Positions 2,302 to 64,000 of a stretch of DNA of 64,000 nucleotides are shown here, in pieces. Origin of the DNA: an uncultured Clostridia bacterium. GTDB lineage: Bacteria; Bacillota; Clostridia; HGM11514. The notes below the pieces were generated by a model that saw only the letters and a list, made by a program, of their open reading frames with translations, ran no database searches and was not told where the DNA came from. The stretch is taken from the NCBI GenBank assembly GCA_934464705.1, contig CAKSKB010000013.1, positions 139 to 64,138 on the forward strand, in the 5' to 3' direction. A program made the translations under genes and the position numbers. Positions within the stretch are counted from its first letter, which is position 1. Each line of letters opens with the position of its first letter.

Positions 2302-3074
2302 AAAAATTGATTTCGCGGCTTTGGCTGTTTCTTATTCTTGCCTTTTTGTATGCGCCTATAATTGTACTTATAATTTATTCTTTCAACAGTTCTAAGACAA
2401 CCGGTCACTGGACGGGTTTTTCGCTAAATTGGTACAAGGAGCTTGTGCGTGACAGAAATATTGTGAATGCACTTATTACCACGGTTGAAGTGGCGGTTCT
2501 TGCATCATTTATATCTACGGTTATCGGTACGGTTTCGGCTATCGCACTGCACGGTTCGGGGGCGTTCTCAAAAAAATTCATGCTCGGTGCGGCGTATCTT
2601 CCGATGCTGAACCCTGATATTGTTACCGGTGTTTCGCTTATGATTCTCTTCGGAAGCATAGGTATGGGGCTTGGGTTCGGAACCATGATGCTTTCGCATA
2701 TTTCGTTTTGCGTGCCGTATGTGATACTTTCGGTGCTGCCGAAGCTTTACGGTCTTAATTCAAACACATTTGAGGCGGCGCTGGATTTGGGTTCAAGCCG
2801 TTTTAACGCTTACAGAAAAGTTGTTTTGCCCGAAATTGTTCCGGGAATAATTTCGGGATTTGTGATTTCCATGACGCTTTCGATAGATGATTTTATGATA
2901 AGCTACTTTAATACCGGCGGCGGTGTTAAAAATCTTTCCATACTTATTTACGGAAGTACCAGAACCGGTGTAAAGCCGGTTTACAATGCACTTTCTGCCA
3001 TTATGTTTCTTGCGGTGCTGATCGTGCTTGTTATCATCAATGTAAGAAAGCTCAAGGCGAGCGGTGAGGAGTAA
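2298..3074 (+). CDS. potC: spermidine/putrescine ABC transporter permease
   Basis: ABC permease with the loop LDLGSSRFNAYRKVVLPEI. Its start overlaps the potB stop. Confidence 0.8.
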   Translation: MKKLISRLWLFLILAFLYAPIIVLIIYSFNSSKTTGHWTGFSLNWYKELVRDRNIVNALITTVEVAVLASFISTVIGTVSAIALHGSGAFSKKFMLGAAYLPMLNPDIVTGVSLMILFGSIGMGLGFGTMMLSHISFCVPYVILSVLPKLYGLNSNTFEAALDLGSSRFNAYRKVVLPEIVPGIISGFVISMTLSIDDFMISYFNTGGGVKNLSILIYGSTRTGVKPVYNALSAIMFLAVLIVLVIINVRKLKASGEE

Positions 3075-3078
3075 CCGG

Positions 3079-28222: not shown

Positions 28223-30211
28223 ATGGTTGATTTTTTTAAGCGGCTCAATATTTATTCGGAAGGGCTTGAAAATGTAAAAAAGCTGTATGAAAACGGAAAT
28301 CCCGACGCGGCATTTTCGGAATACAGGAAAGTTCTTGCAAAGAGGTTTTCCGCCTATCCTGCAGATTATTTTAAGATATACGACTATCCCGCTGAAGAAC
28401 CCAAGCTTTTGCTCAGCAACAAGATTTCGCTTTTGGGGTATGAACCGATTGATTTGGGGAAGCCGATAAACTGGCTTGCACAGCCGCACGGAGATAAGCA
28501 GTGGCAGTCGCATCTCGGGTATATGCGCTGGGTGCTGCCGCTTATTGCCGAGTACAAAAAAACGGGAGATAAAAGATACGCCGATAAATGGTCTGAGATT
28601 ATGAATGATTTTCTCGATAATCATCCGTGGGGCGTTAAGGGTCTTGAATATCACATTTCAAGACCGATGTATCTTAACGAATACAAATTCAAATGCGGTG
28701 GAGAAGGGCAGACACCCGGGTATCTCGGAGGAAGCTGGATTGGACTTGCGGCATCCGCAAGAATTTCGAATTTTACGGTTTGCCTGGCGCATATTATGGA
28801 TGATGAGTATATTTCCGACAAGCTTATTTCAAAAATACTGCTTTCGCTTGCCGTTGACCACTGCGACGTTATATTTAACAATGCAAGACGGTATACGCCA
28901 AATCAGTTTGCGGACGGTGCGTGTGCCCTGCTTAAGTTTTCCATACTTTTTTGGGAGATGAAGGAGGCTCCGGCAGCATATCTTGTCGGCATGCAAAGGT
29001 TTGAGGAAGCGGTCAAAGCCGTGCTTTTGCCGGACGGCTCCGACCTTGAACAGAGTTTTAATTACAATATGGGGCTTCCCAGGATATTTTACGATATATA
29101 CGGGCTTTTCGGAGATTCGCCGAATGAAAGAATAAAGAAGCTGAGAGCCGATATTGACAAAAGATGTAAATTTTTGTTTGATATTTCAAACGAAAACTTT
29201 GAGATTCCTTCAATTGCCAAGACGCATGCATGCTGCGAAAAGGCGTATTTTTCTGAGCTTGAGCAAAAATACGGATTAAATCTTTTCGGAAGAGAATACA
29301 AGTCGGCAGCTTTTCCTTACGGCGGATATTATGTGTCAAAAACGGACGGCAGATATTTGTTTTTCAAGGCATCCAGAGAATCAGTAGGACATTCGCATGA
29401 GGACTGCAATTCGATTATACTTCGGGCGGACGGAATGCCGCTGCTTATTGACTGCTCAAATTATAATTACTCCGATGATGACGACTCTATGGCAATTAAT
29501 AATTACATGTATTCGACCCTTGCGCACAACAGTGTGAGTGTTGACGGTCTTTCGCAGATTACAGTACCTTTTAAAAATGCGCTTTCAAAGGAATATCTTA
29601 AAGAATTAGCCGAAAAGCCGATTGATACTCTCTGCGTCGTTTCTTCCGAATACGATGCGTTTGAAGGTGTTTATGACGGTGTTTACGGTGATGCTTCGTG
29701 GTACAGCAACAACCGCATTTCGGAAGGTATTCCGAAACTGAAGGTTGTGAGAGCAAAACATAACAGAAAGGTTGTTTATTTAAAGACGGCGGATGTGTAT
29801 ATCGTAATTGACCGAGTTTTTGCGGATAAACAGCATAAGTACACGGTTTCATGGAATTTAGCTCCCGAGTATCTGCCTGAGAATGTTCTGACCGACGGTG
29901 AAATAAGAATACGGAAAACCGGCATGCCGTCGCTTTTGATAAAAAGCTTTTCCGACATTCCGGCGGTTTTTGAAAAGTTTTACGGTGACAAGCTTAAGGG
30001 AAGGTATTGCGTCAGCTACGGCAAAACCGAAAAATGTGTTCATGTTGAACAGTCTTACACCGCGAAAAATCTCACTGCGGTGCACATTCTGGCGCCTGAT
30101 TTCAGTGAAAGTTTCGAAAGCTCGAAACTTTCGGGAGATATATTTGAATTTAACTGTGATGGCAAAAAATACAGATTAAATATAAATACATTGAAATATG
30201 AGGTGAATTGA
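28223..30211 (+). CDS. heparinase II/III-like protein (alginate-lyase-like N-domain + heparinase II/III C-domain), cytoplasmic
   Basis: 662 aa with no signal peptide. The N-terminal alpha/alpha-toroid region contains the HPWG and H..GYMRW motifs. The C-terminal beta-sandwich contains HSHEDCNS and NSVSVDG regions, consistent with the heparinase II/III fold. Confidence 0.6.
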   Translation: MVDFFKRLNIYSEGLENVKKLYENGNPDAAFSEYRKVLAKRFSAYPADYFKIYDYPAEEPKLLLSNKISLLGYEPIDLGKPINWLAQPHGDKQWQSHLGYMRWVLPLIAEYKKTGDKRYADKWSEIMNDFLDNHPWGVKGLEYHISRPMYLNEYKFKCGGEGQTPGYLGGSWIGLAASARISNFTVCLAHIMDDEYISDKLISKILLSLAVDHCDVIFNNARRYTPNQFADGACALLKFSILFWEMKEAPAAYLVGMQRFEEAVKAVLLPDGSDLEQSFNYNMGLPRIFYDIYGLFGDSPNERIKKLRADIDKRCKFLFDISNENFEIPSIAKTHACCEKAYFSELEQKYGLNLFGREYKSAAFPYGGYYVSKTDGRYLFFKASRESVGHSHEDCNSIILRADGMPLLIDCSNYNYSDDDDSMAINNYMYSTLAHNSVSVDGLSQITVPFKNALSKEYLKELAEKPIDTLCVVSSEYDAFEGVYDGVYGDASWYSNNRISEGIPKLKVVRAKHNRKVVYLKTADVYIVIDRVFADKQHKYTVSWNLAPEYLPENVLTDGEIRIRKTGMPSLLIKSFSDIPAVFEKFYGDKLKGRYCVSYGKTEKCVHVEQSYTAKNLTAVHILAPDFSESFESSKLSGDIFEFNCDGKKYRLNINTLKYEVN

Positions 30212-32013
30212 AAATGCATTACAGTGTACATGACGGGCAAGAACTTACGGAGGCGTTTGCGGAGTTCAAAGACGGCGACAGCATAAGTCTTAAAACAGGG
30301 ATTTATGAAATTTCAAAAACACTTGAGTTCGGTGCTGACAACATTACCGTTGACGGAAACGGCTCTGCCCTGAAGGGGAGCGTACGGATACCGGTAAGCG
30401 GCAGCGGAGTTGTTGAAATCGACCTCAGGGAGCACGGAATAACCGATTTCGGCAGCTTCGGCGGAGGTCCGTACGAGGATTTCTGGAAAGGCGAGGTCAG
30501 TATTCCTAAGCCGCACCTTACGGACCTCGGTCCGGGGCTTGAACTGTATTTTGACGGCAAGCTTATGCCGATTTCAAGATATCCGAAAGAGGGATTCCTC
30601 AAAATAACAGAGGCGCTCGGTGAAACACCACTGATGTTCAAGGGCAAGCGCAACGGTTCGGTTGAGGGTGTATTCAGATGCAATGACGATAAAATCAAGG
30701 ACTTTAAGGATACCGACCAGCTCCTGCTTGTGGGGTACTGGAATGCCGACTGGGCAACACAGCGCCACACCGTAAAATCAATCGGTTCTGACGGCGTTAT
30801 TGAGGTAAACAAGCCATGGCACACCTTCGGATACCGTGACGGGGAATGCTTTACGGACGAGATAGGCGGAAAGTTTTGCGTTTTAAATGCCGCAGAGGCG
30901 GTGACGGCTCCCGGGGATTGGTGCATAAATCGCAGAACGGGGAAGCTTTATGTTTATCTTTTTGAGGGACAGGATTATGTTGAAGTTTCTGTTGCCGGGG
31001 ATTTGTTTTACGGCGACGGAAGAAGAAATATTAAAATTTCGGACCTCAATCTTTCGCAGTGCAGAAAAAGCGGCATATGCTTTGAAAATTCGCACGGAAT
31101 AACAATTGAAAACTGCAATGTAAAAAACAGCGGAGCGTGGGGTATTCTGGGTGAAAACTGCATGCATATGAGCGTCCGTGACTGTAGTGTTTCGGAAACC
31201 GGAGGCGGAGGAATTGCCCTTTGGGGAGGCGACAGAAACACGCTTACGCCTTCGGGAAATGTCATTTCACGCTGCGAGATTACAAAAATTGCCCGCTGGC
31301 ACAAAACATATATGGCGGCAATCGAAATCGGCGGTGTGGGCGGCTGTGTATCGGAAAATAAAATTCATGATGTTCCGCATTTCGGGATAGTGTTCAGCGG
31401 AAACAATCAAATTATCGAGAAAAACGATATAGGCAATGCCTGCTATGAATCGAACGATGCAGGGGCAATCTATACCGGGCGGGATTATTCCTACAGAGGG
31501 CATATAATAAGGTATAATTACCTTCACGATATGTACGGTTTTGAAAACAGAGGATGCATTGGCTTGTATTTTGACGATGCAATGTCTTCTGCGGAAGTGT
31601 ACGGCAATGTGTTTGCGAATATGCCGTATATTGCGCTGCTTCTCGGCGGCGGAAGGGATTTTGATATTCACGACAATATGTTTTACGGCTGCAAAATGGC
31701 GGTTATGGTTGACGCAAGAGCGTCAAGGTGGAAGAATTTCAGCGAAAATATCATGAAGGTTCTGGGGAAAGTCGATTATAAAGGCGAAATATGGAAAAAC
31801 GCATATCCTAAGCTTTATGATTTTCTCGATAATGACCCTCTTATGCCGCTCGGAAACAAACTTTACGGCAACTGTGTTGTCGGCGGTGACGGTTTCTGCA
31901 TAGAGTCAAAAGAGGTTGCGGATTTAATAGATATGAAAGGCAACAAATTTGTTCATCAGTCAAAGCCCGGTGAACACGAAATCAATCATTATAATTGGTA
32001 CTACGTCAATTAA
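30208..32013 (+). CDS. right-handed parallel beta-helix repeat protein (pectin-lyase fold)
   Basis: 601 aa with repeated NC/GI coils (ENSHGITIENCNVKNSGAWGI, GNVISRCEI, GNNQIIEKNDIG). ATGA overlap with the upstream gene, and no signal peptide. Confidence 0.6.
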   Translation: MKMHYSVHDGQELTEAFAEFKDGDSISLKTGIYEISKTLEFGADNITVDGNGSALKGSVRIPVSGSGVVEIDLREHGITDFGSFGGGPYEDFWKGEVSIPKPHLTDLGPGLELYFDGKLMPISRYPKEGFLKITEALGETPLMFKGKRNGSVEGVFRCNDDKIKDFKDTDQLLLVGYWNADWATQRHTVKSIGSDGVIEVNKPWHTFGYRDGECFTDEIGGKFCVLNAAEAVTAPGDWCINRRTGKLYVYLFEGQDYVEVSVAGDLFYGDGRRNIKISDLNLSQCRKSGICFENSHGITIENCNVKNSGAWGILGENCMHMSVRDCSVSETGGGGIALWGGDRNTLTPSGNVISRCEITKIARWHKTYMAAIEIGGVGGCVSENKIHDVPHFGIVFSGNNQIIEKNDIGNACYESNDAGAIYTGRDYSYRGHIIRYNYLHDMYGFENRGCIGLYFDDAMSSAEVYGNVFANMPYIALLLGGGRDFDIHDNMFYGCKMAVMVDARASRWKNFSENIMKVLGKVDYKGEIWKNAYPKLYDFLDNDPLMPLGNKLYGNCVVGGDGFCIESKEVADLIDMKGNKFVHQSKPGEHEINHYNWYYVN

Positions 32014-39124: not shown

Positions 39125-39645
39125 AATTAAATGTGAAAAACATGACAAGAATTGCAGTGATAAGTGCGGTTTTGTGTGTTATATCACCGTTTACGATCCC
39201 GATTGGTCCGATACCGCTTTCGCTTGCGACCCTTGGAGTATACATAGCTTCGGCAATTCTTGAACCGATTTCGGCAACTGTATCTGTCGGTATTTATATT
39301 CTTCTGGGGGCGTTCGGGCTTCCGGTATTTTCGGGCGTAAGAGGCGGTTTTTCGGTTATTGCAGGGCCTACGGGCGGATACATAATAGGGTATATTATTT
39401 GCGCAGCGGCAGCTTCATATCTTTTGCACAAATTTCCCAAAAAAGCGCTTGCGCCGATTTGGTATGTTATTTCAACCGCTGTATTGTATCTTTTCGGTAC
39501 ACTTTGGTATATGGCGGTGACGGAAACCCATTTTTCGGCAGCGGTTTCCGTCTGTGTCGTTCCATTTCTCGCAGGCGATGCAATAAAAATTGCTGCGGCA
39601 ATGCTGTTCTCAAGCAAGCTCAGCCGCATCGCACAACGGCTTTAA
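39121..39645 (+). CDS. bioY: biotin transporter BioY
   Basis: 174 aa 5-6 TM S-component of the ECF family. Overlaps the birA stop. Confidence 0.8.
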   Translation: MKLNVKNMTRIAVISAVLCVISPFTIPIGPIPLSLATLGVYIASAILEPISATVSVGIYILLGAFGLPVFSGVRGGFSVIAGPTGGYIIGYIICAAAASYLLHKFPKKALAPIWYVISTAVLYLFGTLWYMAVTETHFSAAVSVCVVPFLAGDAIKIAAAMLFSSKLSRIAQRL

Positions 39646-41175
39646 ATTATTCAGGCTATCCCATAAAAAGGCCTTATATACCGTATTTTCCGTGCGTTTC
39701 CACTCAATCGGAAGAGCTATTGTTTTTTCGTTGGCAGCATCAAAATCAATCGTTTCGATATGAATATCTTTTAAAATGCCGCTCTCGCAGCGCAGCAACA
39801 CAAGCTGTCTTACACCGCTGCCGGCAGCGGCTTTTACTTGATAATCACTTATAAATTCCACATAGTTTTCAATCTTGTTCTTGATTTTTGTAAATGCTTT
39901 TATACGCGGAACTGCGTCAAGCGGCATCCAAGCTCCTCTGTTTGCATATGATTTGCCCGAAGCTTCGTTAAGCGTTATGTATCCGTTTTGAACTTTGGCA
40001 ACTACAGCAAAGTTGGTGCCGTTTTCAATTTTCACGGGCGTGTCAAGCTCTATACAATTGAAGCCTCCGTATTCCAAATTAACAGTCTTTGATGCCGCAG
40101 GTGCGGCATTTTCGGGATTGAAGTCACCCTTGGGGACATCTGTATATATTTCAACGGTGCAAACAGTGTTTTCGCCCGAAATTCCAACGCTGACGGCTTT
40201 AATTTCCTCGGGTTTTTCTGCCGTTCCCTTTTTAGCCTTAAAAATATTGGCTGCATTTGTGATTTTTATCAGACTTCCTATTCCAAAATCCTCAGCCTTT
40301 TCGTCATAAAAATAATTATAGTCATACTTGTCGTCAGGTGCATAGTCAAAAGCATAAATCTGTTCACAGGTGACTTCGTAGGAGATATAAAAATACTGCA
40401 ACGAATTATAGCTGTTTTTAACCAGCCAGCCTCCGTTTAGCTTTGCGCCGCCGGGGATAAAGGTTTCTGCGGGGAGAGTATCGTCCCAACCGATAACCGT
40501 ACATGCGTGCGGCTGTCCGCTTTTGTCATTATTCGGGTTATATCGTTCGGTTTCCCTTGCGTTGTTATACGAAAATGTTACAGCACCGTATTTTACAATG
40601 GCGCGTTTCATCTTTTCTCTTGCTTCTGCGCTTTCGGCAAGCTTGCTGCCGTTTATCGCAACGGCGCTTTCAAGCTTGTATGCAGCATTCTCCCAACCGT
40701 TTACGTCATGCGGCAAGTCCTTGCCGACAGGTCCGCACCAGGTCGACAGCAGCCCTGCGGCATATTTGGTTCCGCTGCCGGCATATGCCCATTCGTCGGC
40801 TTGCGCAGTTATTTCTCCTTTGGTATTGCCAAGAGGGTCAGAGCCTCGGTTGTGTCTCGCATAACCAATCTGCTGCGGCGATAAAAATACGCTTTTGGCC
40901 GTCGCTGTTGGATCAATACCTTTTCTGAGTATGGATGTTTCGGAGGCGCTTGCCGTTGAATAAGCCCAGCACAGCGAGGTGTTTCCTTGATCTTTCACCG
41001 GCGTTACAATACCGTATTCGCGGCTGTCGAACCTTGGCTGTGCCGCAAGTGTTTCAATATCGGCATTTCGTAAGTCGTCAGGCGTTTTTGCGTTGTCTGC
41101 ATATGCGGTAGTCTGTACAAAGAGCATTGATATCAACAAAGCACCCGAAAATATACGTATAAAATTAGCTTTCAT
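39610..41175 (-). CDS. secreted papain-like (C1 family) cysteine peptidase with C-terminal beta-sandwich domains
   Basis: Signal peptide MKANFIRIFSGALLISMLFVQTTAYA and the catalytic QGNTSLCWAYS motif. Its 3' end overlaps bioY by 36 nt (convergent). Confidence 0.65.
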   Translation of the reverse strand: MKANFIRIFSGALLISMLFVQTTAYADNAKTPDDLRNADIETLAAQPRFDSREYGIVTPVKDQGNTSLCWAYSTASASETSILRKGIDPTATAKSVFLSPQQIGYARHNRGSDPLGNTKGEITAQADEWAYAGSGTKYAAGLLSTWCGPVGKDLPHDVNGWENAAYKLESAVAINGSKLAESAEAREKMKRAIVKYGAVTFSYNNARETERYNPNNDKSGQPHACTVIGWDDTLPAETFIPGGAKLNGGWLVKNSYNSLQYFYISYEVTCEQIYAFDYAPDDKYDYNYFYDEKAEDFGIGSLIKITNAANIFKAKKGTAEKPEEIKAVSVGISGENTVCTVEIYTDVPKGDFNPENAAPAASKTVNLEYGGFNCIELDTPVKIENGTNFAVVAKVQNGYITLNEASGKSYANRGAWMPLDAVPRIKAFTKIKNKIENYVEFISDYQVKAAAGSGVRQLVLLRCESGILKDIHIETIDFDAANEKTIALPIEWKRTENTVYKAFLWDSLNNLKPLCDAAELA

Positions 41176-41449
41176 CAGACGATATCCTTTCCGTGTAGTT
41201 TGTTTTATCTGAATTTGTTTCCGTTTCATAAAGCTCAAATCTGTATTTTTGTTCGGCATCAGGATACTTCTCATGGTCAACCTCTTCTAAAAACATATCA
41301 ATGGGTCGTATCCATAACCTTCTATCGCCATACATTTGTCTGTACACCACATAGGTTTCACCGGTTTCCGAATGCTTTGCAACATCCTCCGCTCGATATA
41401 AATTACCTTTAAAATGCCTGTAAACGGCGCCGATTTCCAATTTTCTCAT
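41165..41449 (-). CDS. DUF1653 domain protein
   Basis: 94 aa whose N-terminus AVYRHFKGNLYRAEDVAKHSETGETYVVYR matches DUF1653. Confidence 0.55.
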   Translation of the reverse strand: MRKLEIGAVYRHFKGNLYRAEDVAKHSETGETYVVYRQMYGDRRLWIRPIDMFLEEVDHEKYPDAEQKYRFELYETETNSDKTNYTERISSDES

Positions 41450-54054: not shown

Positions 54055-54125
54055 AGCGAGATTGTGTAAAGGTAGCACGATTGACTCTGACTCAATTTGT
54101 GAGGGTTCGAATCCTTCTCTCGCTG
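54055..54125 (+). tRNA. tRNA-Gln (anticodon CTG)
   Basis: Hand fold: acceptor AGCGAGA/TCTCGCT, D-stem GTGT/GCAC, anticodon stem ATTGA/TCAAT with loop CTCTGAC, T-arm GAGGG-TTCGAAT-CCTTC, discriminator G. Confidence 0.75.
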
Positions 54126-54131
54126 CTTGAA

Positions 54132-55441: not shown

Positions 55442-55524
55442 CTTACAGTAAAAACTGCTGTGAAAATTTCGGCTTGCTTTAGGCGAGTCGGAATTTTTTT
55501 GTTTTTAAAAATTAAAAAAACTAT

Positions 55525-55553
55525 TGACAAAAATGTAAAATTATGTTATAAAT
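55525..55553 (+). promoter_or_regulatory. sigma-A promoter (TTGACA-16/17-TATAAAT) with about 110-nt leader
   Basis: TTGACA at 55525-55530. The leader contains a 14-codon uORF (55565..55609, MSKYVKRGVVPLVM*) and a GTGATTT-cggca-AAATCAC hairpin. Confidence 0.45.
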
Positions 55554-55668: not shown

Positions 55669-58600
55669 ATGAAAAAACTGAGAGCAATACTGTCGGTATT
55701 TTTAGTTCTGATAATAGTTTTTGGAATGCTGAAAACCGGCGTCTTTGCAGAAGAAACCGCCGCTGAAACCGCAGTTTCGGAAGAAATTTACGAAACTGAC
55801 GAAACGGCAGCTGAAGAAACAACGGAACAAGAAACAGAGATGCAGCCGCAGGGGGAAGAAATCGAACAAGCGGCAGATTACAGCGAAGAGGAAAATACAG
55901 CGCATTCCAAAGTTGAAGGCGTTGATTATTCAACAGAATATTGCGAATCCAAAATGACAGACGATGAAATTTCGGTGCTTGAAAAAGCATACGGATTTCA
56001 TGCGTCGGATACACCTTATGATGAAGAAATTATAGGGGAAGCATATAATCAGTACCAGATTTCCGTGCCGGGCGGTACAGTTTCGGTTAACGCTGCACCG
56101 AGCAGCTACACCGAGCTGGCAATTCCGTCAACGACAACGGTAACCACAACATCTGCATCGCAGAAGATTTATTACAAAATTGTGCCGTCCGCAACCGGCA
56201 GATACTGCTTTAAATCAGACTCGGGAAGCGGCGGTGATACATATGCAAGGCTGCTTAATTCTTCGGGAAGCCAGCTGGCATACTGCGATTCCGGACTTAT
56301 GCAGCCCAATGTTGAAGACTTTCACATAAATGAAATTCTGACAAAGAACACTACATATTATCTTGAGGTTCAGAACAAAAAGGGTGCCGGCAGTTTCAAA
56401 ATGTATGTGTTTTCGGATGATTACCTTGACGGAACATATAAGCCCGCAGAACTGACATTCGGCGAAAACAAATCGGGAACAATCAACTACGCTTATGACC
56501 ATGATATGTTCAAATTTGTGCCGACCGAAAGCGGAACTTATTCGTTTTTCACTACCGGCAGCATGGATACTTACGGTTACCTTGTCAACTCATCGCATAC
56601 TGTTCTTGCGTCAAATGATGACAGCGGAGCAGGCAGTAACTTTAAAATTGATTACGCACTCACAAAGGGGCAGGCGTATTATGTAAGCGTTCAGGGGTAT
56701 GGCAACAGTGCCACCGGAAATTACACTATATGTGTAGGTATGGCCGAATCCACTATGACAACCCTTAGCAATAATTCATCGGTGAATGTGTCGTTTTCAT
56801 CCGGGGCAGCGGATAAGTGGTATAAATTCACACCTCCGTCAAGCGGAAGATATTGCTTTAAATCCTGCTCGGATAATCTGGATACCTCGGCGGTTCTTTA
56901 TGATAATCAGTTTGTGGAGGTTGCGCACTGTGATATCGGTTATGTCCGTCCCAACTGGGATGATTTTCACATAAATGAAGTTCTGACCGGCGGAAAGGCT
57001 TATTATCTCAAAGTCAAGATGAAAACGGAAGCCGGCGGCAGCTTCAGCCTTGTCAGCTTTGCCGACGATTATCTTGACGGCAGCTTCGCTTCGGCAGTAG
57101 TTGAAAACGGTGTTGAAAAAAGCGGAACAATCAACCATGCCAGCGACCACGATATGTTTAAGTACACGCCGTCGGGCAGTGAAAACAACATTATAACGCT
57201 GGAGTCATCGGCTGATTTGAAGGTTGATATTTATGCTTCAAATGACGCCTATGTAAAATCGGCTACGGGTAAAAATATATCGCTTCCTCATAATTCAAGC
57301 GGCGCATTCTATTATATTGATGTATATAAAAACACCGGAATCGGCAGCTATAAGCTTAAGGTTTCAAGTGCGGATACCGATGTGTCGTCTGCAGAAACGG
57401 TTAGCTTTCCTGCGGCAAAAACTGTGTCAAGTGGTAAAGTATTCAAAATAATTCCGTCGGTCAGCGGTAAATATTCTATGAAATCCGTAACAACAGATAA
57501 CACTACATACGGTGCTTTGTATGATAATTGCGGAAAACTTTTGTTCCGCTATACAGATGGCAGAAGCGGTGACAATCTTCATGATTTTCACATAATGGAA
57601 ACACTTGAAAAGGACAAAATTTATTACTTTAAAGTTACTTCTTCGGCAAGCGGAAATATTCCTGTATATTTTTATGCCGATGATTATACCGACGGAACAA
57701 ATAATGCAAACGGTACACCGCTTCAGCAGGAGGTTTTTGCCGGTGAATCGTGGGCATCGGTTATAAATTACACTTCTGACAGAGATGTATTCATATTTAA
57801 GCCGATTATCAGCGGGGAATATGAAATTGCGGCAGACAAGCCTCAAATCTCATTTGAAGTTTACAGTGACCGTGACCATAAAAAAGTAACCGCCAATTCG
57901 GACGGCAATTACGACCTTGTTGACGGACAAACTTATTTTATTGATTTTTATGCTTCGAGCGCATTTACAGGAAGCTTTAATTTCGATATAAACATGATTA
58001 AAGCGGCACATAGCTATAATGTTGCGTCATCCAATGAACTTTTTGATATAAAAGTAAAACAGGGAGAAAGTGCATTTTATGAGCTTGGCAGCGGAATTTC
58101 AGGTTTCAAAACCGTTTCGGCAAAATCGTCAAAAGATGAACTGAGTCTTTGTATTGTTGATGATGAAGGACGAAACTGCTCGAGTGTTGAGTATGAACCC
58201 CGTACGGCACGGTTCTCAACTTATTACAACTTTGAAAGCGATAAAAAATATTATCTTAAAGTGTCAAACAATGATACTGCAGATGCAACAGTATATGCTG
58301 CGATTTACAGTGATGATTATCCGAACCGCAAACAGGATCTGATAACTTATGAGTTTGGTGAAACGAACGGCAAAATAGATTTCGACGGTGATGTTGATGT
58401 TTATAAATTTGCTTGCGAAAGCAACAGTGTCATCAATATACGCTATGAGGGCGAAAATGATTTGACCTTTAAGGTTTTCAGCGGCGAAGTCTGGATCGGC
58501 TCTGAGCAAAGCGGCAAAAATGTTAACCTTAATCTTAGCACCGGAAGCAACAATGTTTGCTATGTGTATGTATATCATACATCCGAAATCGGTATATGCA

Positions 58601-59607
58601 GTTACAAGTTTACGGCGGATGTGCTTGATTTTTCGGACAGCAACTGCACCGTGCTGACGCTTGATGTTCCGGCTTATGCAAACCTTACTTCAACCGATGA
58701 TTACAAGCTGTTTTCGTTTGTTCCCGAAAAAACGGCTATGTACAGAATAGACACGGGAAACGAAGCTAAAATCGAGATATATGATTATTACCTCAATCTT
58801 AAGGAAACAACATATTACTATGACCTGGATTGTACCTATTTAAGCTGTGATATGAAAAAAGGAAAAACATATTACATAAAAATAAGCTGCTTTAACGGTG
58901 ATGAAAATTATCTCGGCAATATTTCGGTTACCGCAACAATGGACGATTATCCGGGCGGTGTTCCTTATAATGTTCCTACAATCGGCAGCGGCGATGTTCA
59001 GAAGGGCTGCATAGAAATACCGGGTGATGAGGACAGCTATTGGGTTCAGGTTGAAAACGACGGAACATATAACATTGTTTCGCTCGGAGGAACCGATGTG
59101 AAAGCTGAACTCTATGACGGAAGCACTGTTATTGCAAGTGATGATAACAGCGGTGACGGTATGAATTTCAAAATGACCGCAGAGCTTGCCGGAGAAACTC
59201 CATACAGGCTGCGTATAACCGGAGGAACCGCAGCGGCTGTCGGCGGATACAGGATTTATGTCAGCCCGGCGTCCGCATTGAATACGGTTTACGGTTATGC
59301 TGCAAGAAATGATATAGTCAATGTTGAATTTGCAAAGAAGGGCAGCGGAAATTCAGCGGTATATACTTTTAATTATGACAGTGAAGCATTTGAAATTTAC
59401 GATTTGTGCGGTCTGACATTTGCGCTGGAACTTGAAGCGGCGGCAATAGGAAATGTAACAATAAACAGTGTTACACCGGGAACGGTTGTGTTTACGGTTT
59501 CCGGAAACGGTGCGGACGCTTTCGCAGATAGGGTAGAAAATATTATAAGACTCAAGGCAAAAAGAGACGGAGCGTTTCTTTGCACCTGGAGCTGCACAAA
59601 CAGCTGA
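55669..59607 (+). CDS. giant secreted modular protein with ~10 PPC-like (pre-peptidase C-terminal-type) beta-sandwich repeats
   Basis: Signal peptide MKKLRAILSVFLVLIIVFGMLKTGVFA, then an acidic E/T/A-rich linker. Two module types alternate. Type A carries SG(R/K)Y(C/S)FKS...DFHI(N/M)E...YY(L/F)(K/E)V, and type B carries GTINYA(Y/S)DHDMFK(F/Y)...Y.(I/V). The C-terminal ~110 aa may be Ig/cohesin-like. Confidence 0.7.
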   Translation: MKKLRAILSVFLVLIIVFGMLKTGVFAEETAAETAVSEEIYETDETAAEETTEQETEMQPQGEEIEQAADYSEEENTAHSKVEGVDYSTEYCESKMTDDEISVLEKAYGFHASDTPYDEEIIGEAYNQYQISVPGGTVSVNAAPSSYTELAIPSTTTVTTTSASQKIYYKIVPSATGRYCFKSDSGSGGDTYARLLNSSGSQLAYCDSGLMQPNVEDFHINEILTKNTTYYLEVQNKKGAGSFKMYVFSDDYLDGTYKPAELTFGENKSGTINYAYDHDMFKFVPTESGTYSFFTTGSMDTYGYLVNSSHTVLASNDDSGAGSNFKIDYALTKGQAYYVSVQGYGNSATGNYTICVGMAESTMTTLSNNSSVNVSFSSGAADKWYKFTPPSSGRYCFKSCSDNLDTSAVLYDNQFVEVAHCDIGYVRPNWDDFHINEVLTGGKAYYLKVKMKTEAGGSFSLVSFADDYLDGSFASAVVENGVEKSGTINHASDHDMFKYTPSGSENNIITLESSADLKVDIYASNDAYVKSATGKNISLPHNSSGAFYYIDVYKNTGIGSYKLKVSSADTDVSSAETVSFPAAKTVSSGKVFKIIPSVSGKYSMKSVTTDNTTYGALYDNCGKLLFRYTDGRSGDNLHDFHIMETLEKDKIYYFKVTSSASGNIPVYFYADDYTDGTNNANGTPLQQEVFAGESWASVINYTSDRDVFIFKPIISGEYEIAADKPQISFEVYSDRDHKKVTANSDGNYDLVDGQTYFIDFYASSAFTGSFNFDINMIKAAHSYNVASSNELFDIKVKQGESAFYELGSGISGFKTVSAKSSKDELSLCIVDDEGRNCSSVEYEPRTARFSTYYNFESDKKYYLKVSNNDTADATVYAAIYSDDYPNRKQDLITYEFGETNGKIDFDGDVDVYKFACESNSVINIRYEGENDLTFKVFSGEVWIGSEQSGKNVNLNLSTGSNNVCYVYVYHTSEIGICSYKFTADVLDFSDSNCTVLTLDVPAYANLTSTDDYKLFSFVPEKTAMYRIDTGNEAKIEIYDYYLNLKETTYYYDLDCTYLSCDMKKGKTYYIKISCFNGDENYLGNISVTATMDDYPGGVPYNVPTIGSGDVQKGCIEIPGDEDSYWVQVENDGTYNIVSLGGTDVKAELYDGSTVIASDDNSGDGMNFKMTAELAGETPYRLRITGGTAAAVGGYRIYVSPASALNTVYGYAARNDIVNVEFAKKGSGNSAVYTFNYDSEAFEIYDLCGLTFALELEAAAIGNVTINSVTPGTVVFTVSGNGADAFADRVENIIRLKAKRDGAFLCTWSCTNS

Positions 59608-59618
59608 GGAGGATAAAA

Positions 59619-60596
59619 ATGAAAAGAATAATACTTATTACAATAGGTCTTATAGCAGCATTGGCGATAGGTGTATTTGCGGCGGACGGAATCACCGGCG
59701 GGGATATTATCGGTGTTTTTGAGCCGGAAGTTACAGAAGTTGCCGAAGAGACCGAGGAAATCGCCGCAGAACCCGACGGCACGGTTTATGTAACCGAAAA
59801 CGCCCTGACGGCGCTGCTGAACTCAGATAAAACCCGAAGCGAAGCAACAGGGGAGCTTGAGGCGGTTTACTCTATGACGGCTGAATACGGAATGACAGAT
59901 GAAGAAGCGGCGTATATTGCAAATCTGGTTAATAATGGCTATGACCTTTCGTGGCTTCTTGATATTTATGTATTCTGGACAACCTGCGATGATGATATAA
60001 GCATAATAAAGAGCATGTACGATTCTGCCGTAAATAATGATATTAACGGCAGGTACTGGGAGGAGGACGCTTATAACATCGTAACAAACCGTAAACACGG
60101 CGAGCTGAGCGTTGATGAAATTATGGCGTATCTCGATAAAGGTCTTAGCATTGATGATGTAAGGCAGGCGAATGTACTTTCGAGAAACAAGGATTATACA
60201 ATCAGCGAGATTCTTGACGAAGTTGTCGGCGGAAAAAGTATGGACGAAATGAAAAAGGATGTATTCGGAAGCAACGAAGATAAGCCGGCAGAGAGTCTGG
60301 CGCTTGAGCAAAGACACGGCGTAACTGCGGTTGATACAAATAAAGAGGTTTATGTAAAATCGGCTTCCGCAGCGGTTTCCGCAGAAACCAATAAGAATAA
60401 AGTCAGGGCGTATTTGAATGAAAAGCTCGGGGAGGAACGCACAAATGAGCTTCTCTCAAAGTATTCTTATATCATTGTATATAATGCTGCCGAGGCAGCT
60501 GAAAGCGAGAATACAGATATAGAACAAATTCTCAATGAATACGAAACACTCGGAAACAGAACAAGAACACTTGAAAGGAGTGTGTATTTAGGATGA
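59619..60596 (+). CDS. hypothetical exported/membrane-anchored protein
   Basis: RBS AGGAGG precedes the start. N-terminal TM/signal MKRIILITIGLIAALAIGVFA, followed by an acidic region. Its stop overlaps the RHS gene start. Confidence 0.55.
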   Translation: MKRIILITIGLIAALAIGVFAADGITGGDIIGVFEPEVTEVAEETEEIAAEPDGTVYVTENALTALLNSDKTRSEATGELEAVYSMTAEYGMTDEEAAYIANLVNNGYDLSWLLDIYVFWTTCDDDISIIKSMYDSAVNNDINGRYWEEDAYNIVTNRKHGELSVDEIMAYLDKGLSIDDVRQANVLSRNKDYTISEILDEVVGGKSMDEMKKDVFGSNEDKPAESLALEQRHGVTAVDTNKEVYVKSASAAVSAETNKNKVRAYLNEKLGEERTNELLSKYSYIIVYNAAEAAESENTDIEQILNEYETLGNRTRTLERSVYLG

Positions 60597-63500
60597 AAAA
60601 ACTTATAATAGGTTTGAGCCTGCTTGCTGTGCTGCTTTGTTTCGGAGCGGCAGCGTATGCGTCAACCGAAGGCTCTGCCGACATTGCGGCGCAGATAAGT
60701 TATAATCAAAAAATATCAGGTTCGGAATATAAATCACCGCTTAATACTGATGATGAACAAAGGGTTGATGTGCGTTCGCAGAGCCTCATAATCAATAGTA
60801 CCGATATAAGCCTTCCGGGTAAAAACGGTATGGATTTGAATATTATGAGAGCATATAGGAGCGCATCTGAAAAGATGATCAGCATATCAGCACCCGGTAA
60901 AACAGCGGATTACATATCGAAAAAGTATGCTTATAAATATAATTACAGTTATAATAATACAGATTACAGCTGTTATATAATATTTGACGGCGAAGAGGAT
61001 ATGTTTTCAAAGGGCGTAAATGTCCAGATAAAAAATATATACCGTGCTGGTGGTGCGAAACCGGGCGCGGACCCGGTTACGACTGTTAACGGTTTAAATG
61101 CCTATTATTACACAGCTCTTAAAAAAGATACCTATAGCGGCTTAACGCTGCTGAGAGATGCAGCTCAGGCTGCTGTTGAGGTAGATGTGGCAGTTAAATC
61201 GACATCGGTGGACAGTGATGTTTTCAGCGACCTTAAGGAAAAGGATAAGATCTGTGATGGCTGGTATCTGAGAATGCCGTATTTGCGGTTTTATTCCGAA
61301 ACAAGAAATGATTATTATGTTGATAGAAATGCAGTAGTATTTAACGGAACAGCCTATAACAATTTATCATATACCGTACAAAATTGTCTGTTTAGCAACG
61401 AGAACGGACAGCTTATATGGGGCGAATACAGAAGGTATTATATAGAACGCACTGAAAAGGAAATGATACAGGATCCCGAAAGCGGAAGAGGCGTGTGGGT
61501 AGATAAAAAGGTATATGATTATGTCGGCAGTCGCTTGTGGATAAATGAAGCCTATGCGAGCGTCAGCGAAGGTGATGACGGTTACGGCGGTGAAATTGAC
61601 GGAATCGGTTATTCTTTTTACTTTGTAGATAAGGGAACCGGTTACGGGTATTATTTCAGTAACGGAAGGCTTAGGGTTAAGGAAGATAAATACGGAAACA
61701 AAATCAAGTATTACTATACTTCCGACAACAGATTAAGTTATATAACCGATACCTATGGGAGAACAGTGAATTTCACATGGGGTGCAAATGGTTATGCCCT
61801 TGATATAGGCTACGGAAACCGCCATGTTAAGTATAAAACATACAGTAGCGAGGGCGACTCTCCGCTTGACCGCGATGATACTTGTACAATGGAATATATT
61901 AATGAGGCTAATGAAAAGACTGTATATACCTCATCAAGAATAGGTTCTGTAGTAAGAAATGAAAGGATAGCTCCAAATGTTTCGTATTATGATTATATAA
62001 ATTATATTACTGATATTGAATATGCGAGTGGCGGACACAAAAAGTATGATTATGGCTACCTTAAAACTAAGGATTGGGAATGCAGTCCGATGGTGGTCAA
62101 ACAGGAAAAAACACAAACCAACGGTGAGGTTAAAGAGGTTGTCAACTACAAAGGCGAACATACTCTGACTGATGCAGAAACGGAAGATTTTGCGTTGAAC
62201 ACATATCTTGCACACGCTGCAGCCGGGTACACAACACCGGATGATTTTACGAAGGTTACCACAGAGAACAGTGCCGATGACGGCAGTACAAGCACGGTCA
62301 TTTACGGTTACAGCAACGGCACACTGAAAGCGGTGCTTAGCTATGACGGTAAAGGCAATGTAAACCGAAAATTCAGCTACTACAGTAAAAAAGACGGTTA
62401 CGATATAATATCTGAGGAAACAACTGTGCAGTATAATAAAAACAATGCTTCCGATGTTGTGACCAAAACCGATACCTATGATTACGAACAGCCGTATAAC
62501 AATCTTACATACAGCTATGACGGGCGTGTGACCGTGCGTAATAAGTATTATGAGAAGGCTGCAAATCCGGCAATCTATCCGAGATACCTCGTGGAAAAGG
62601 ATCAGCGCGTGATGGACGGAACAGACAGCGAATATCCGTATATTCATAGGGTTGAAAGGTATAAATATGAAAGCTATGCAAGCGGAAACGAACAGTTTGA
62701 GGCAACCAACCCATCGTATCTTCTCGTGTGGGAAAACGAAGAAAAAGAGGACGGTACAATAAAAGGCGGAGCCGGTACACTGAAAGAGAGAATCGAGTAT
62801 GAGTATGATTCCTGCGGAAGAGTAATTAAGGTAAAAAAGCTTGAAACGCCGCATACCGGTGCCAGAAACGAAAATTCTCCCGGCGAGATTACAACATATT
62901 CTTACGAAGATACCGGCTACGGTACGGATGTGAGCGCACTGAAAACCGTAACCGAAAGCAAAACCCTTACGGACGGTACCGTCGCTTCCGTTGTAACGAA
63001 ATATGATTACTATGGAAATAAAGTTTCGGTTTCCGGTTACGGCACCGATAGCGTAACCTATACCTACGATGCGAAAAACCGCGTAACACGCGAACAGTAT
63101 GCAGACGGTACGGCAAAAACATATTCTTATATCGTAACACCCGCCGCTTGCAAAACGGAAGTTACCGACCAGAGCGGCAAGAAAATCAGAATCGTTTATG
63201 ACGATCTGGGAAGACAAATTAAAACCCTCGTCAACCCCGGAGAGCCTTCCGAAACTGCTGTTGAGGAAATAAATTACAATAATTTGGGACAAATTAGTAA
63301 AAAAACTCTTGACAGCGGTGATAATTCATGTTATAATGTGGAATATAAATACAATTGCTTTGGCGAGGTAATTGAGGAAAAGGCAACGGATAATACCGGA
63401 AAGGTTTACCGTCAGAATAATTATGATTATTCTTTCGGGCAGGCTGAAGGTAAAATGTGCCGCGTAACAACCACAACATCAAAGGTAAGGAATGAACATG

Positions 63501-64000
63501 ACAGGGTTGTTACAAAGTATGCCGATGCCTGGGGGCTTTTGGTCAAGGCAACCGCAAAAGGCGGAAATGATGAGTATTCCGTTAAGAATACCTATGACAG
63601 CTGCGGCGTGCTTAAATCATCAACCGATGCAAACGGCAATGTTACAAGCTTTGGCTATGACTATAACAGCAGGCAGATTTCCGAAACCAATGCCGCAGGC
63701 AAAACCAAGAGCTGTACCTATAATATTTATGGGTATATGACAACCTCAACGGATTTCATGGGCAATGTTACAAATTATTCCTATGATAATCTCGGGAGAG
63801 TGACGGAGACCATAGCACCTATGTCCGATTCCGAAAATATGAAAACCCAAACCTTTTATAACGCTGCCGGCGATAAGGCAAAGGATAGGGTTTATACCTC
63901 CGCATCGGAGTTCAGGGATACAGACTATACCTACGATAACCGCCATAGAGTAACTACCGTAACAAGCGACGGCGTAAGCTATACAAAGTATTTCTATGAT
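60593..64000 (+). CDS. WapA-like RHS/YD-repeat polymorphic toxin precursor (5' partial, runs off window)
   Basis: ATG at 60593 is embedded in GGATGA, overlapping the upstream stop. Sec signal MKKLIIGLSLLAVLLCFGAAAYA. The frame was translated by hand and stays open for more than 1135 codons to the window end. It contains many YD repeats (YEYDSCGRVIKV, YTYDAKNRVTRE, YDDLGRQIKT, YSYDNLGRVTET, YTYDNRHRVTTV). Confidence 0.8.
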   Translation, partial: MKKLIIGLSLLAVLLCFGAAAYASTEGSADIAAQISYNQKISGSEYKSPLNTDDEQRVDVRSQSLIINSTDISLPGKNGMDLNIMRAYRSASEKMISISAPGKTADYISKKYAYKYNYSYNNTDYSCYIIFDGEEDMFSKGVNVQIKNIYRAGGAKPGADPVTTVNGLNAYYYTALKKDTYSGLTLLRDAAQAAVEVDVAVKSTSVDSDVFSDLKEKDKICDGWYLRMPYLRFYSETRNDYYVDRNAVVFNGTAYNNLSYTVQNCLFSNENGQLIWGEYRRYYIERTEKEMIQDPESGRGVWVDKKVYDYVGSRLWINEAYASVSEGDDGYGGEIDGIGYSFYFVDKGTGYGYYFSNGRLRVKEDKYGNKIKYYYTSDNRLSYITDTYGRTVNFTWGANGYALDIGYGNRHVKYKTYSSEGDSPLDRDDTCTMEYINEANEKTVYTSSRIGSVVRNERIAPNVSYYDYINYITDIEYASGGHKKYDYGYLKTKDWECSPMVVKQEKTQTNGEVKEVVNYKGEHTLTDAETEDFALNTYLAHAAAGYTTPDDFTKVTTENSADDGSTSTVIYGYSNGTLKAVLSYDGKGNVNRKFSYYSKKDGYDIISEETTVQYNKNNASDVVTKTDTYDYEQPYNNLTYSYDGRVTVRNKYYEKAANPAIYPRYLVEKDQRVMDGTDSEYPYIHRVERYKYESYASGNEQFEATNPSYLLVWENEEKEDGTIKGGAGTLKERIEYEYDSCGRVIKVKKLETPHTGARNENSPGEITTYSYEDTGYGTDVSALKTVTESKTLTDGTVASVVTKYDYYGNKVSVSGYGTDSVTYTYDAKNRVTREQYADGTAKTYSYIVTPAACKTEVTDQSGKKIRIVYDDLGRQIKTLVNPGEPSETAVEEINYNNLGQISKKTLDSGDNSCYNVEYKYNCFGEVIEEKATDNTGKVYRQNNYDYSFGQAEGKMCRVTTTTSKVRNEHDRVVTKYADAWGLLVKATAKGGNDEYSVKNTYDSCGVLKSSTDANGNVTSFGYDYNSRQISETNAAGKTKSCTYNIYGYMTTSTDFMGNVTNYSYDNLGRVTETIAPMSDSENMKTQTFYNAAGDKAKDRVYTSASEFRDTDYTYDNRHRVTTVTSDGVSYTKYFYD

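Follow-up and report, generated by a model that had tools for sequence, protein, structure and literature searches.

A complete RHS polymorphic toxin and its conserved upstream partner genes in an uncultured gut Clostridia bacterium

The 64,000-nucleotide (nt) stretch of DNA analysed here (the window; contig CAKSKB010000013.1 of an uncultured Clostridia bacterium) ends inside a plus-strand gene that encodes a protein with RHS/YD repeats. Judged by its complete sequence, the product is a bona fide RHS polymorphic toxin, a well-known class; this ordinary toxin lies within a conserved and previously undescribed accessory cassette, in which it is preceded by two genes, A and B. The region probably forms the 5′ portion of an operon with four genes, A, B, RHS and immunity, of an uncultured gut Clostridia bacterium, and linkage, topology and analogy make it probable that the operon serves an envelope-acting RHS toxin, with A and B in accessory roles. 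What stands above the ordinary is the A-B-RHS cassette, the unannotated RHS-linked gene B family, the cohesin-like tail of gene A, hypervariability in the N-terminal part of the RHS protein and a gene context suggestive of action at the envelope.

The complete RHS gene and its cargo

A preliminary description, made from the letters of the window, had proposed an RHS gene that its list of open reading frames (ORFs) lacked. The plus strand is indeed open from the ATG at 60593 to the window end (60593..64000), with 1136 codons and zero stops in the translation; because the DNA is 43% GC and the run so long, a chance origin of this frame is implausible. The start ATG lies within TTAGGATGAAAA (GGATGA) and overlaps the TGA of gene B by 4 nt, and the first 23 amino acids (aa), encoded at 60593..60661 on the plus strand, are MKKLIIGLSLLAVLLCFGAAAYA followed by S, a predicted Sec-type signal peptide with a single hydrophobic segment and an AxA-type cleavage site (AYA/S, the slash marking the site); both features had been read correctly before. 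All five YD motifs quoted in the preliminary description occur in the translation, and the in-window part of the protein matches Pfam RHS_repeat (7.8e-18) and NCBIfam YD_repeat_2x (2.4e-6). The gene is missing from the ORF list because it runs past the window end. What the list does hold here, a 452-aa ORF at 61934..63292 on the minus strand, is fully antisense to the RHS frame, has a low-complexity translation and is not a gene; the gene calling of the source contig places none there.

The contig beyond the window was recovered by an exact-sequence look-up of the 325-aa gene B protein, which gave L001, a 78-kb metagenome scaffold in ENA with 0 mismatches to the window across 14,382 shared nt (window position = locus position + 49618). 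On L001 the full RHS gene has 1913 uninterrupted codons, the first 1136 of them within the window, and ends at window-equivalent position 66334. The full protein matches RHS_repeat (PF05593; 1.6e-36, in six stretches), YD_repeat_2x (TIGR01643; 3.4e-23) and, at aa 1588-1662 and across the entire model length, Rhs_assc_core (TIGR03696; 4.5e-23). The core boundary motif, predicted earlier to be of the PxxxxDPxGL form, is PVNRTDPFGL at aa 1653-1662 and is followed by a cargo of 251 aa. This cargo holds a PG_binding_1 domain (aa 1676-1737; 3.2e-7, 30.9 bits against a cut-off of 23) and an Ntox44 domain (PF15607; aa 1794-1908; 6.2e-23, 81.6 bits with a cut-off of 24, covering positions 1-104 of the 104 in the model), and the three signature motifs of Ntox44 (DxK, GNxxxG and DxxxD; Zhang et al. 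2012, PMC3482391) are all intact in it, as DIK, GNITYG and DSEED. The RHS core and the C-terminal toxin module that the preliminary description had placed just outside the window are thus present on the same contig, as are a small ORF at the immunity position and an orphan toxin/immunity cassette (see below).

Among solved structures, the best matches to the RHS protein are cocoons of Rhs proteins associated with type VI secretion systems (T6SS) and bacterial teneurin-like proteins (8h8a, 5e-29; 7q97, 3.8e-24), with further matches to Tse5 (8cp6), S. bongori Rhs (8qja) and 9pt5. These matches cover residues ~970-1662 only, and the N-terminal half of the protein has no solved-structure match. 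The homology to solved cocoons is supportive of a predicted closed beta-cocoon that cleaves itself.

Polymorphism of the C-terminus, as anticipated for this class, was observed in two ways: relatives carry unrelated cargos (metallopeptidase-like with an HExxH motif, or matching Peptidase_C39_2 at 2.8e-8), and the orphan copy downstream of the RHS gene diverges right after DPxGL. One might take the RHS gene for a pseudogene in decay or for an artefact of assembly. Such a reading would have a parallel in the close relative L003, whose RHS gene shows, at 4600-5130, an ~11-codon deletion and a frameshift after ...YSYEDAGYGT (a pseudogene or an assembly error), and in the GH3 gene remnants just upstream of the operon. 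With a frame of 1913 codons, all core motifs and the toxin motifs intact, and intact orthologues of 1869-1965 aa in several independent metagenomes, such decay or artefact is extremely unlikely.

Genes A and B and the N-terminal region of the RHS protein

Gene B (59619..60596, plus strand) encodes an exported protein of 325 aa, predicted to be all-alpha, from an unannotated family linked to RHS genes. The preliminary description had given it 338 aa from a TTG at 59580; the ATG at 59619 is most likely the true start, because GAGGAGG lies 7 nt upstream of it and the source-contig gene callers and all close homologues use the 325-aa form. The protein begins with a segment that serves as signal or anchor and continues with a linker of acidic character, four helical hairpins (core ~85-225) and a C-terminus with a weak UBA-like signal, which was the sole match in Pfam, NCBIfam and PDB. 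A word-index search with gene B returned four close relatives (clusters), and a HMMER profile search of 1.84 billion representatives extended the family to 225 clusters at E<=1e-3 (186 at E<=1e-10). Members have 230-400 aa and share the core at ~85-225, with the pattern YI..L...G.D...L..IY.FW..T.EDI...W.E.AFN..T...HGVL...AN.LSRKGV.TI.EILD in the clean alignment; 144 of 153 start with MKK and a hydrophobic segment. Two other roles of gene B were considered and rejected, that of an immunity protein (gene B is conserved while the cargo varies) and that of an anti-sigma factor or regulator (the protein is essentially without a cytoplasmic part).

The genomic context of gene B was scored, by ORF annotation and local hidden Markov models (HMMs), at the loci of four close relatives, of seven distant members spread across the E-value range and of 19 hits from a metagenome scan, the query of which was a 12-sequence subset of a 65-sequence gene B alignment; loci with at least ~70 codons downstream were counted. 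At 31 of 31 loci (~21 non-redundant lineages), gene B is directly followed by an ORF with a signal peptide and the N-terminal module of the RHS protein. The two genes overlap by 4-17 nt or are separated by a gap of at most 25 nt, with the 4-nt overlap found at most loci. Sequences on which the HMM of the RHS N-terminal module had not been trained match it as well (L088 at 5e-48, L089 at 2e-51, and also L073, L078, L081 and L087), and on long enough contigs the partners of gene B are RHS proteins of 1869-1965 aa with DPxGL near residue 1640-1690. The pairing of gene B with RHS genes is strict and conserved in the loci examined, and this linkage adds weight to the earlier suggestion that the coupled protein may serve in delivery or anchoring.

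Regulatory genes were found beside the cassette in some relatives. In L065 (1200-4110; metagenome-assembled genome (MAG) GCA_944388555.1 at NCBI), a LytTR response regulator, a histidine kinase, AgrB and a 49-aa peptide ORF lie directly upstream of the A-B-RHS cassette, and this agr-type quorum-sensing set is a hint that control depends on cell density in that lineage. L089 has an extracytoplasmic function (ECF) sigma/anti-sigma pair near its cassette in place of the agr-type set, and its RHS toxin gene is followed by a gene for a protein with an SLH domain. Spo0A adjoins the cassette of one relative.

The RHS partners of gene B share a conserved start. Residues 1-90 of the RHS protein are 87-100% identical among close relatives, and a signal peptide with a YA/STS motif is common to all related partners. 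The module consensus comprises the signal peptide, YA/STS..L, G..Y..P, tD.sLPGkNGmD.ni.R.y.s, ig.GWy...P and DryGN.i.Y...i.Dt.GR; its conserved part after the signal peptide (aa 24-90; 60662..60862, plus strand) includes the DUF6531-like motif TDISLPGKNGMDLNIMRAYRS, and in distant relatives the LPG...R.Y.S element scores near the threshold of DUF6531. The preliminary description had set apart the ~400 residues ahead of the YD repeats as an uncharacterised region, possibly one for delivery. The region does precede the repeats, but it reads as a divergent start of the RHS shell rather than a delivery domain, because a DUF6531-like LPGKNGMD...R.Y.S is followed in it by GW..P, with interruption by hypervariable stretches.

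These stretches, which lie in the N-terminal third of the protein and give close relatives a mosaic pattern, are hypervariable region 1 (HV1; aa ~91-330; 60863..61582, plus strand) and hypervariable region 2 (HV2; aa ~450-630; 61940..62482, plus strand), both with 20-60% identity among relatives, at loci where genes A and B are still 86-99% identical. Descriptions of RHS proteins usually confine variability to the C-terminus; here, N-terminal hypervariable regions add to the C-terminal polymorphism. That HV1 and HV2 are exposed target-binding inserts is one reasonable guess. A word-index homologue search with the RHS N-terminus found one relative. When only the first 342 aa served as query, the same search came back empty and missed even a known 67% relative, which makes this null uninformative; a GTDB genome scan with the RHS N-terminus, a weak negative that used two peptide patterns only, found no relative.

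Gene A (55669..59607, plus strand) encodes a secreted protein of 1312 aa, in which a signal peptide is accompanied by five modules of ~210 aa that all end in DDYxxG. Neither Pfam nor PDB has a match to its body; PPC domains, proposed by eye, found no support in either database, and only the five-fold DDYxxG periodicity stands. In relatives the gene A equivalents (585-1400 aa across the family) have other bodies, such as an RCC1 beta-propeller or unrelated sequences in proteins of 585, 1025 and 1255 aa, and the same C-terminal domain of ~100 aa, which in the window was delimited by the family alignment (59300..59604, plus strand). Four of 11 family members match Pfam Cohesin (PF00963) in their tails (best 7e-5), and a profile of the tails matches the solved cohesin 4ums_A across the domain (9.4e-4), with weaker matches to further cohesins. 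On this moderate support, the C-terminal domain of gene A appears cohesin-like. In L089 (4931-9967) the cohesin-like tail is a separate 253-aa ORF after a 1400-aa RCC1-repeat protein, so that gene A is split or modular there.

The same linkage can be read in another way: gene B might be a dedicated extracytoplasmic folding chaperone with no anchor or adaptor function, the need for which would arise because a ~210-kDa beta-cocoon must fold after Sec translocation, and gene A might be an independent adhesin in the same operon. A small, exported and helical protein, translationally coupled to the RHS gene by the 4-nt overlap at most loci and conserved while the cargo and the gene A body vary, would suit such a task, and the SecF-like helper of S. 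suis is a precedent for an export helper. Yet gene B resembles neither PrsA nor SurA nor any other foldase, and the conserved cohesin-like tail of A, always adjoining B, suggests that A belongs to the same complex. We consider the chaperone reading doubtful.

Immunity candidates and the site of action

Downstream of the RHS gene on L001 lie three candidate immunity genes, an orphan toxin and the DNA repeats D1 and D2. The first candidate, I1 (180/185 aa; L001 16703/16718-17260), overlaps or abuts the RHS stop and has a terminator with a 13-bp stem on its 3′ side (L001 17491-17522). D2 is a repeat of 174 nt whose two copies are 94% identical (L001 17541-17714 and 19686-19859; window-equivalent 67159-67332 and 69304-69477), and both copies carry a promoter-like TTGACA-17-TAATAT with an upstream TG, by consensus match only. 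Copy 1 precedes the orphan toxin cassette: a 5′-truncated copy of the RHS core tip with CT2 (L001 17722/17837-19048) and then I2, a 160-aa ORF (L001 19045-19527) followed by a terminator. Copy 2 precedes I3, a lone immunity-like ORF of 128 aa (L001 19912-20298). D2 has the look of a leader that cassettes can reuse and from which orphan immunity genes would be expressed on their own. The orphan core tip shares 95% of its DNA sequence with the RHS gene over 300 nt; its protein sequence is 89% identical over 185 aa, up to exactly DPxGL, beyond which its C-terminus of 219 aa is unrelated to the RHS cargo. Because the orphan cassette combines a core tip, another toxin and an immunity candidate behind a promoter-like repeat of its own, the locus is a classical recombining polymorphic toxin locus.

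I1, I2 and I3 each have a basic N-terminus and a single hydrophobic transmembrane (TM) segment, predicting an N-in topology with an outward-facing domain; the orphan toxin fragment has no hydrophobic segment. In relatives, genes at the immunity position encode exported surface proteins with WG_beta_rep and Cu_amine_oxidN1 domains (1e-34 to 1e-38). The peptidoglycan (PG)-binding domain is part of the cargo, because it is located after the cleavage motif. Gene context and topology point to action of this RHS clade, including its Ntox44 cargo, at the cell envelope, contrary to the RNase label of the domain; envelope action is favoured because of the PG-binding cargo, the N-in TM-anchored I1-I3 and the peptidase-type cargos of relatives with their exported partners. 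Scleractinian corals acquired Ntox44 as a secreted protein (PMC8162421), which by analogy would fit extracellular action. As to a specific activity, Ntox44 was considered as a TelC-like lipid II phosphatase (TelC/Lipocone) and this was rejected, since phmmer, run with the 251-aa cargo as query on every PDB sequence, returned no TelC match at E<=1; no Ntox44-TelC link was found in the literature searched.

A classical contact-dependent system of the WapA type would instead have the Ntox44 RNase enter the target cytoplasm, with the PG-binding domain docking on the wall and A and B dispensable. Pfam and Zhang et al. 2012 do place Ntox44 among predicted nuclease toxins, and B. subtilis WapA delivers tRNases according to the discussion section of PMC12704120. 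Such a system is at odds with the immunity-position ORFs, all three of which are N-in TM-anchored with outward-facing domains. Immunity to a cytoplasmic nuclease is normally a soluble cytoplasmic protein, which we count against it too. The peptidase-type cargos of relatives with exported partners are a further difficulty; the literature searched holds no demonstrated RNase activity of Ntox44 members, and the strict B-RHS linkage argues against a dispensable B. Overall this alternative is unlikely.

Also weighed was a toxin aimed at a eukaryotic host or prey, in the manner of Tc/ABC toxins, with gene A as a TcA-like binding or translocation subunit. A large variable binding protein beside a cocoon protein superficially resembles Tc loci, and the organism inhabits the animal gut, to judge from the sources of relatives. 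Nevertheless, Pfam searches of all three proteins (A, B and RHS) found neither SpvB nor TcdB_mid nor a domain of TcA type, gene A has 585-1400 aa only and is absent in some lineages, and a PG-binding cargo, immunity-position genes and an orphan toxin/immunity cassette are hallmarks of interbacterial polymorphic toxins. A eukaryotic target is very improbable.

Under the favoured explanation of an envelope-acting toxin operon, the RHS protein would be exported unfolded via Sec, would fold outside the membrane into a cocoon that encloses the cargo, and would cleave itself at the core boundary. The released cargo would hit the cell envelope of neighbouring Gram-positive competitors, not cytoplasmic RNA, and a membrane-anchored, outward-facing immunity protein would protect sibling cells. 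Genes B and (usually) A would encode dedicated accessory proteins of this RHS clade, whose most likely task is to retain, assemble or present the cocoon at the surface of the producer via the conserved RHS N-terminal module; the variable gene A body and the two hypervariable RHS regions may give target recognition.

A more far-reaching version, which we put forward tentatively and hold to be possible without being likely, takes A and B as a new deployment apparatus for Sec-exported RHS cocoons in Clostridia and Ntox44 as an envelope-targeting enzyme, not an RNase. B would then be an obligate adaptor attached to the conserved N-terminal module of the RHS protein, A would use its cohesin-like tail to dock a variable adhesin body for target recognition onto the complex, and the hypervariable regions would add target specificity, so that the A-B apparatus might be a Gram-positive functional counterpart of VgrG/Eag or of TcA.

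Several observations weigh against the explanation of an envelope-acting toxin with accessory A and B. On the toxin side, the domain annotation labels Ntox44 a predicted RNase, which would imply cytoplasmic action (no experimental characterisation or demonstrated RNase activity of any Ntox44 member was found in the literature searched); I1 (180 aa) has no family match in Pfam or NCBIfam, and what makes it a candidate immunity protein of the RHS toxin is position and topology. On the side of the partners, gene B matches no known chaperone, anchor or secretion family. Gene A adjoins gene B in ~15 lineages and is absent in three, and because of this absence it is not essential; its copy in the window falls below detection by Pfam Cohesin. 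Pfam searches found no dockerin in gene B or the RHS protein, and a dockerin-like gene B was rejected at an hhalign probability of 0.09% against an approximate C. thermocellum-type dockerin sequence. AlphaFold2 models were too poor for a fold search, both for the gene B family (five sequences; all-alpha short helical hairpins with a predicted local distance difference test score (pLDDT) of 50.6) and for RHS residues 24-600 (two sequences; pLDDT 33.1). Finally, the related loci represent a limited range of lineages and are for the most part short metagenome contigs.

Genomic setting and comparison with known systems

At the operon boundary upstream of gene A, consensus matches give a strong terminator-like hairpin with a 17-bp stem (55462-55498, plus strand) and, between this hairpin and gene A, a promoter-like site (55512-55541, plus strand). 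Farther upstream, a tRNA-Gln(CTG) gene at 54055-54126 is followed by three short ORFs (region to 55441) that are pieces of one decayed GH3 beta-glucosidase gene, with a GH3_C match (4.4e-13) in a 123-aa piece and a weak match to the GH3 N-domain in a 186-aa piece; the toxin operon may have inserted next to tRNA-Gln.

The window as a whole is ordinary chromosome, with a pyr operon, glycoside hydrolases, a P-type ATPase, an ABC-F ATPase and RlmL. Its ABC-F protein shares 94% identity with the counterpart in 'Clostridia bacterium CON6 bin1', 80% with that of a human-gut Clostridiales MAG and ~50% with those of Acutalibacteraceae/Oscillospiraceae MAGs from animal guts. The placement among uncultured Clostridia, which are monoderm, upholds the Gram-positive host assumed in the preliminary description, and strong Shine-Dalgarno sites agree with it. 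Elsewhere in the window, a 556-aa ORF (39610-41280, minus strand) encodes both a cysteine protease domain of the papain family (Peptidase_C1) and a lectin-like domain, and polysaccharide-degradation genes for an alpha-L-rhamnosidase, a heparinase II/III-like protein and a beta-helix protein (3064-5892 and 28223-32013) agree with a glycan-foraging gut anaerobe.

How Gram-positives bring an RHS cocoon of ~200 kDa through the thick wall that surrounds them and deliver it to a competitor is a largely unsettled question, on which this locus bears. To our knowledge, the sole mechanistic clues on Gram-positive RHS delivery come from B. subtilis WapA and a recent study of S. suis. The RHS-linked gene B family of ~225 clusters and its partner with a cohesin-like tail are concrete candidates for deployment machinery in gut Clostridia, which are abundant in animal microbiomes and whose interbacterial weapons are poorly charted. 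The hypervariability in the N-terminal part of the RHS protein may mark a targeting region, and the locus lends itself to a clean test of what Ntox44, a domain that has spread to effectors of the T6SS and the type VII secretion system and to corals, really does. No publication describing the A-B-RHS cassette was found in the literature searched.

The preliminary description had called the gene WapA-like, and this holds in the functional sense of a Sec-exported RHS toxin in a monoderm; wall-binding repeats of the CWB2 or LysM type and a tRNase cargo are lacking. Like B. subtilis WapA, the system has a monoderm host, a Sec signal peptide, a predicted YD-repeat cocoon, an RHS core with DPxGL, a C-terminal toxin that is polymorphic, an immunity-position gene downstream and orphan cassettes. 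It differs from it in having no CWB2 repeats (Pfam found no CW_binding_2, LysM, SLH or other wall-binding domain before the RHS core at E<=0.05), a cargo of PG_binding_1 plus Ntox44 in place of a tRNase, membrane-anchored immunity candidates and two dedicated upstream partner genes.

For the accessory genes, two published systems come nearest. One is the srtB-secF-like-wapA cassette of S. suis and other Lactobacillales, whose accessory genes srtB and secF-like are needed for deployment of WapA (PMC12704120). The two cassettes share a Sec-exported Gram-positive RHS toxin behind two conserved accessory genes and a DUF6531-type shell start. Genes A and B are nevertheless unrelated to the S. suis pair, with no Sortase or SecD/SecF match in Pfam, and the RHS protein, at ~210 kDa against >300 kDa for S. 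suis WapA, has no LysM/DNRLRE wall-anchoring region and comes from Clostridia rather than Lactobacillales.

With T6SS Rhs effectors (RhsA 7q97, Tse5 8cp6, 8h8a and S. bongori Rhs 8qja) the protein shares the cocoon and the aspartyl-protease core over residues ~970-1662; those effectors have PAAR/VgrG-binding N-termini, Eag chaperones and diderm hosts, whereas a signal peptide is found here. The cargo resembles the Ntox44 (PF15607) family in its full-length match and three motifs, and departs from the usual label of predicted RNase in its fusion to PG_binding_1 within an RHS cargo and its pairing with a TM-anchored immunity candidate. The other system near to this one in its accessory genes is MafA/MafB of Neisseria, in which a conserved upstream exported partner was proposed to anchor the toxin via a lineage-specific N-terminal domain (Zhang et al. 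2012, PMC3482391). MafA and MafB have no sequence relation to the proteins described here, MafB is not an RHS protein, and MafA is a lipoprotein whereas gene B is without a lipobox; the arrangement is nonetheless alike, with a Sec-exported polymorphic toxin that bears a lineage-specific N-terminal module and is always preceded by a conserved, non-polymorphic exported partner.

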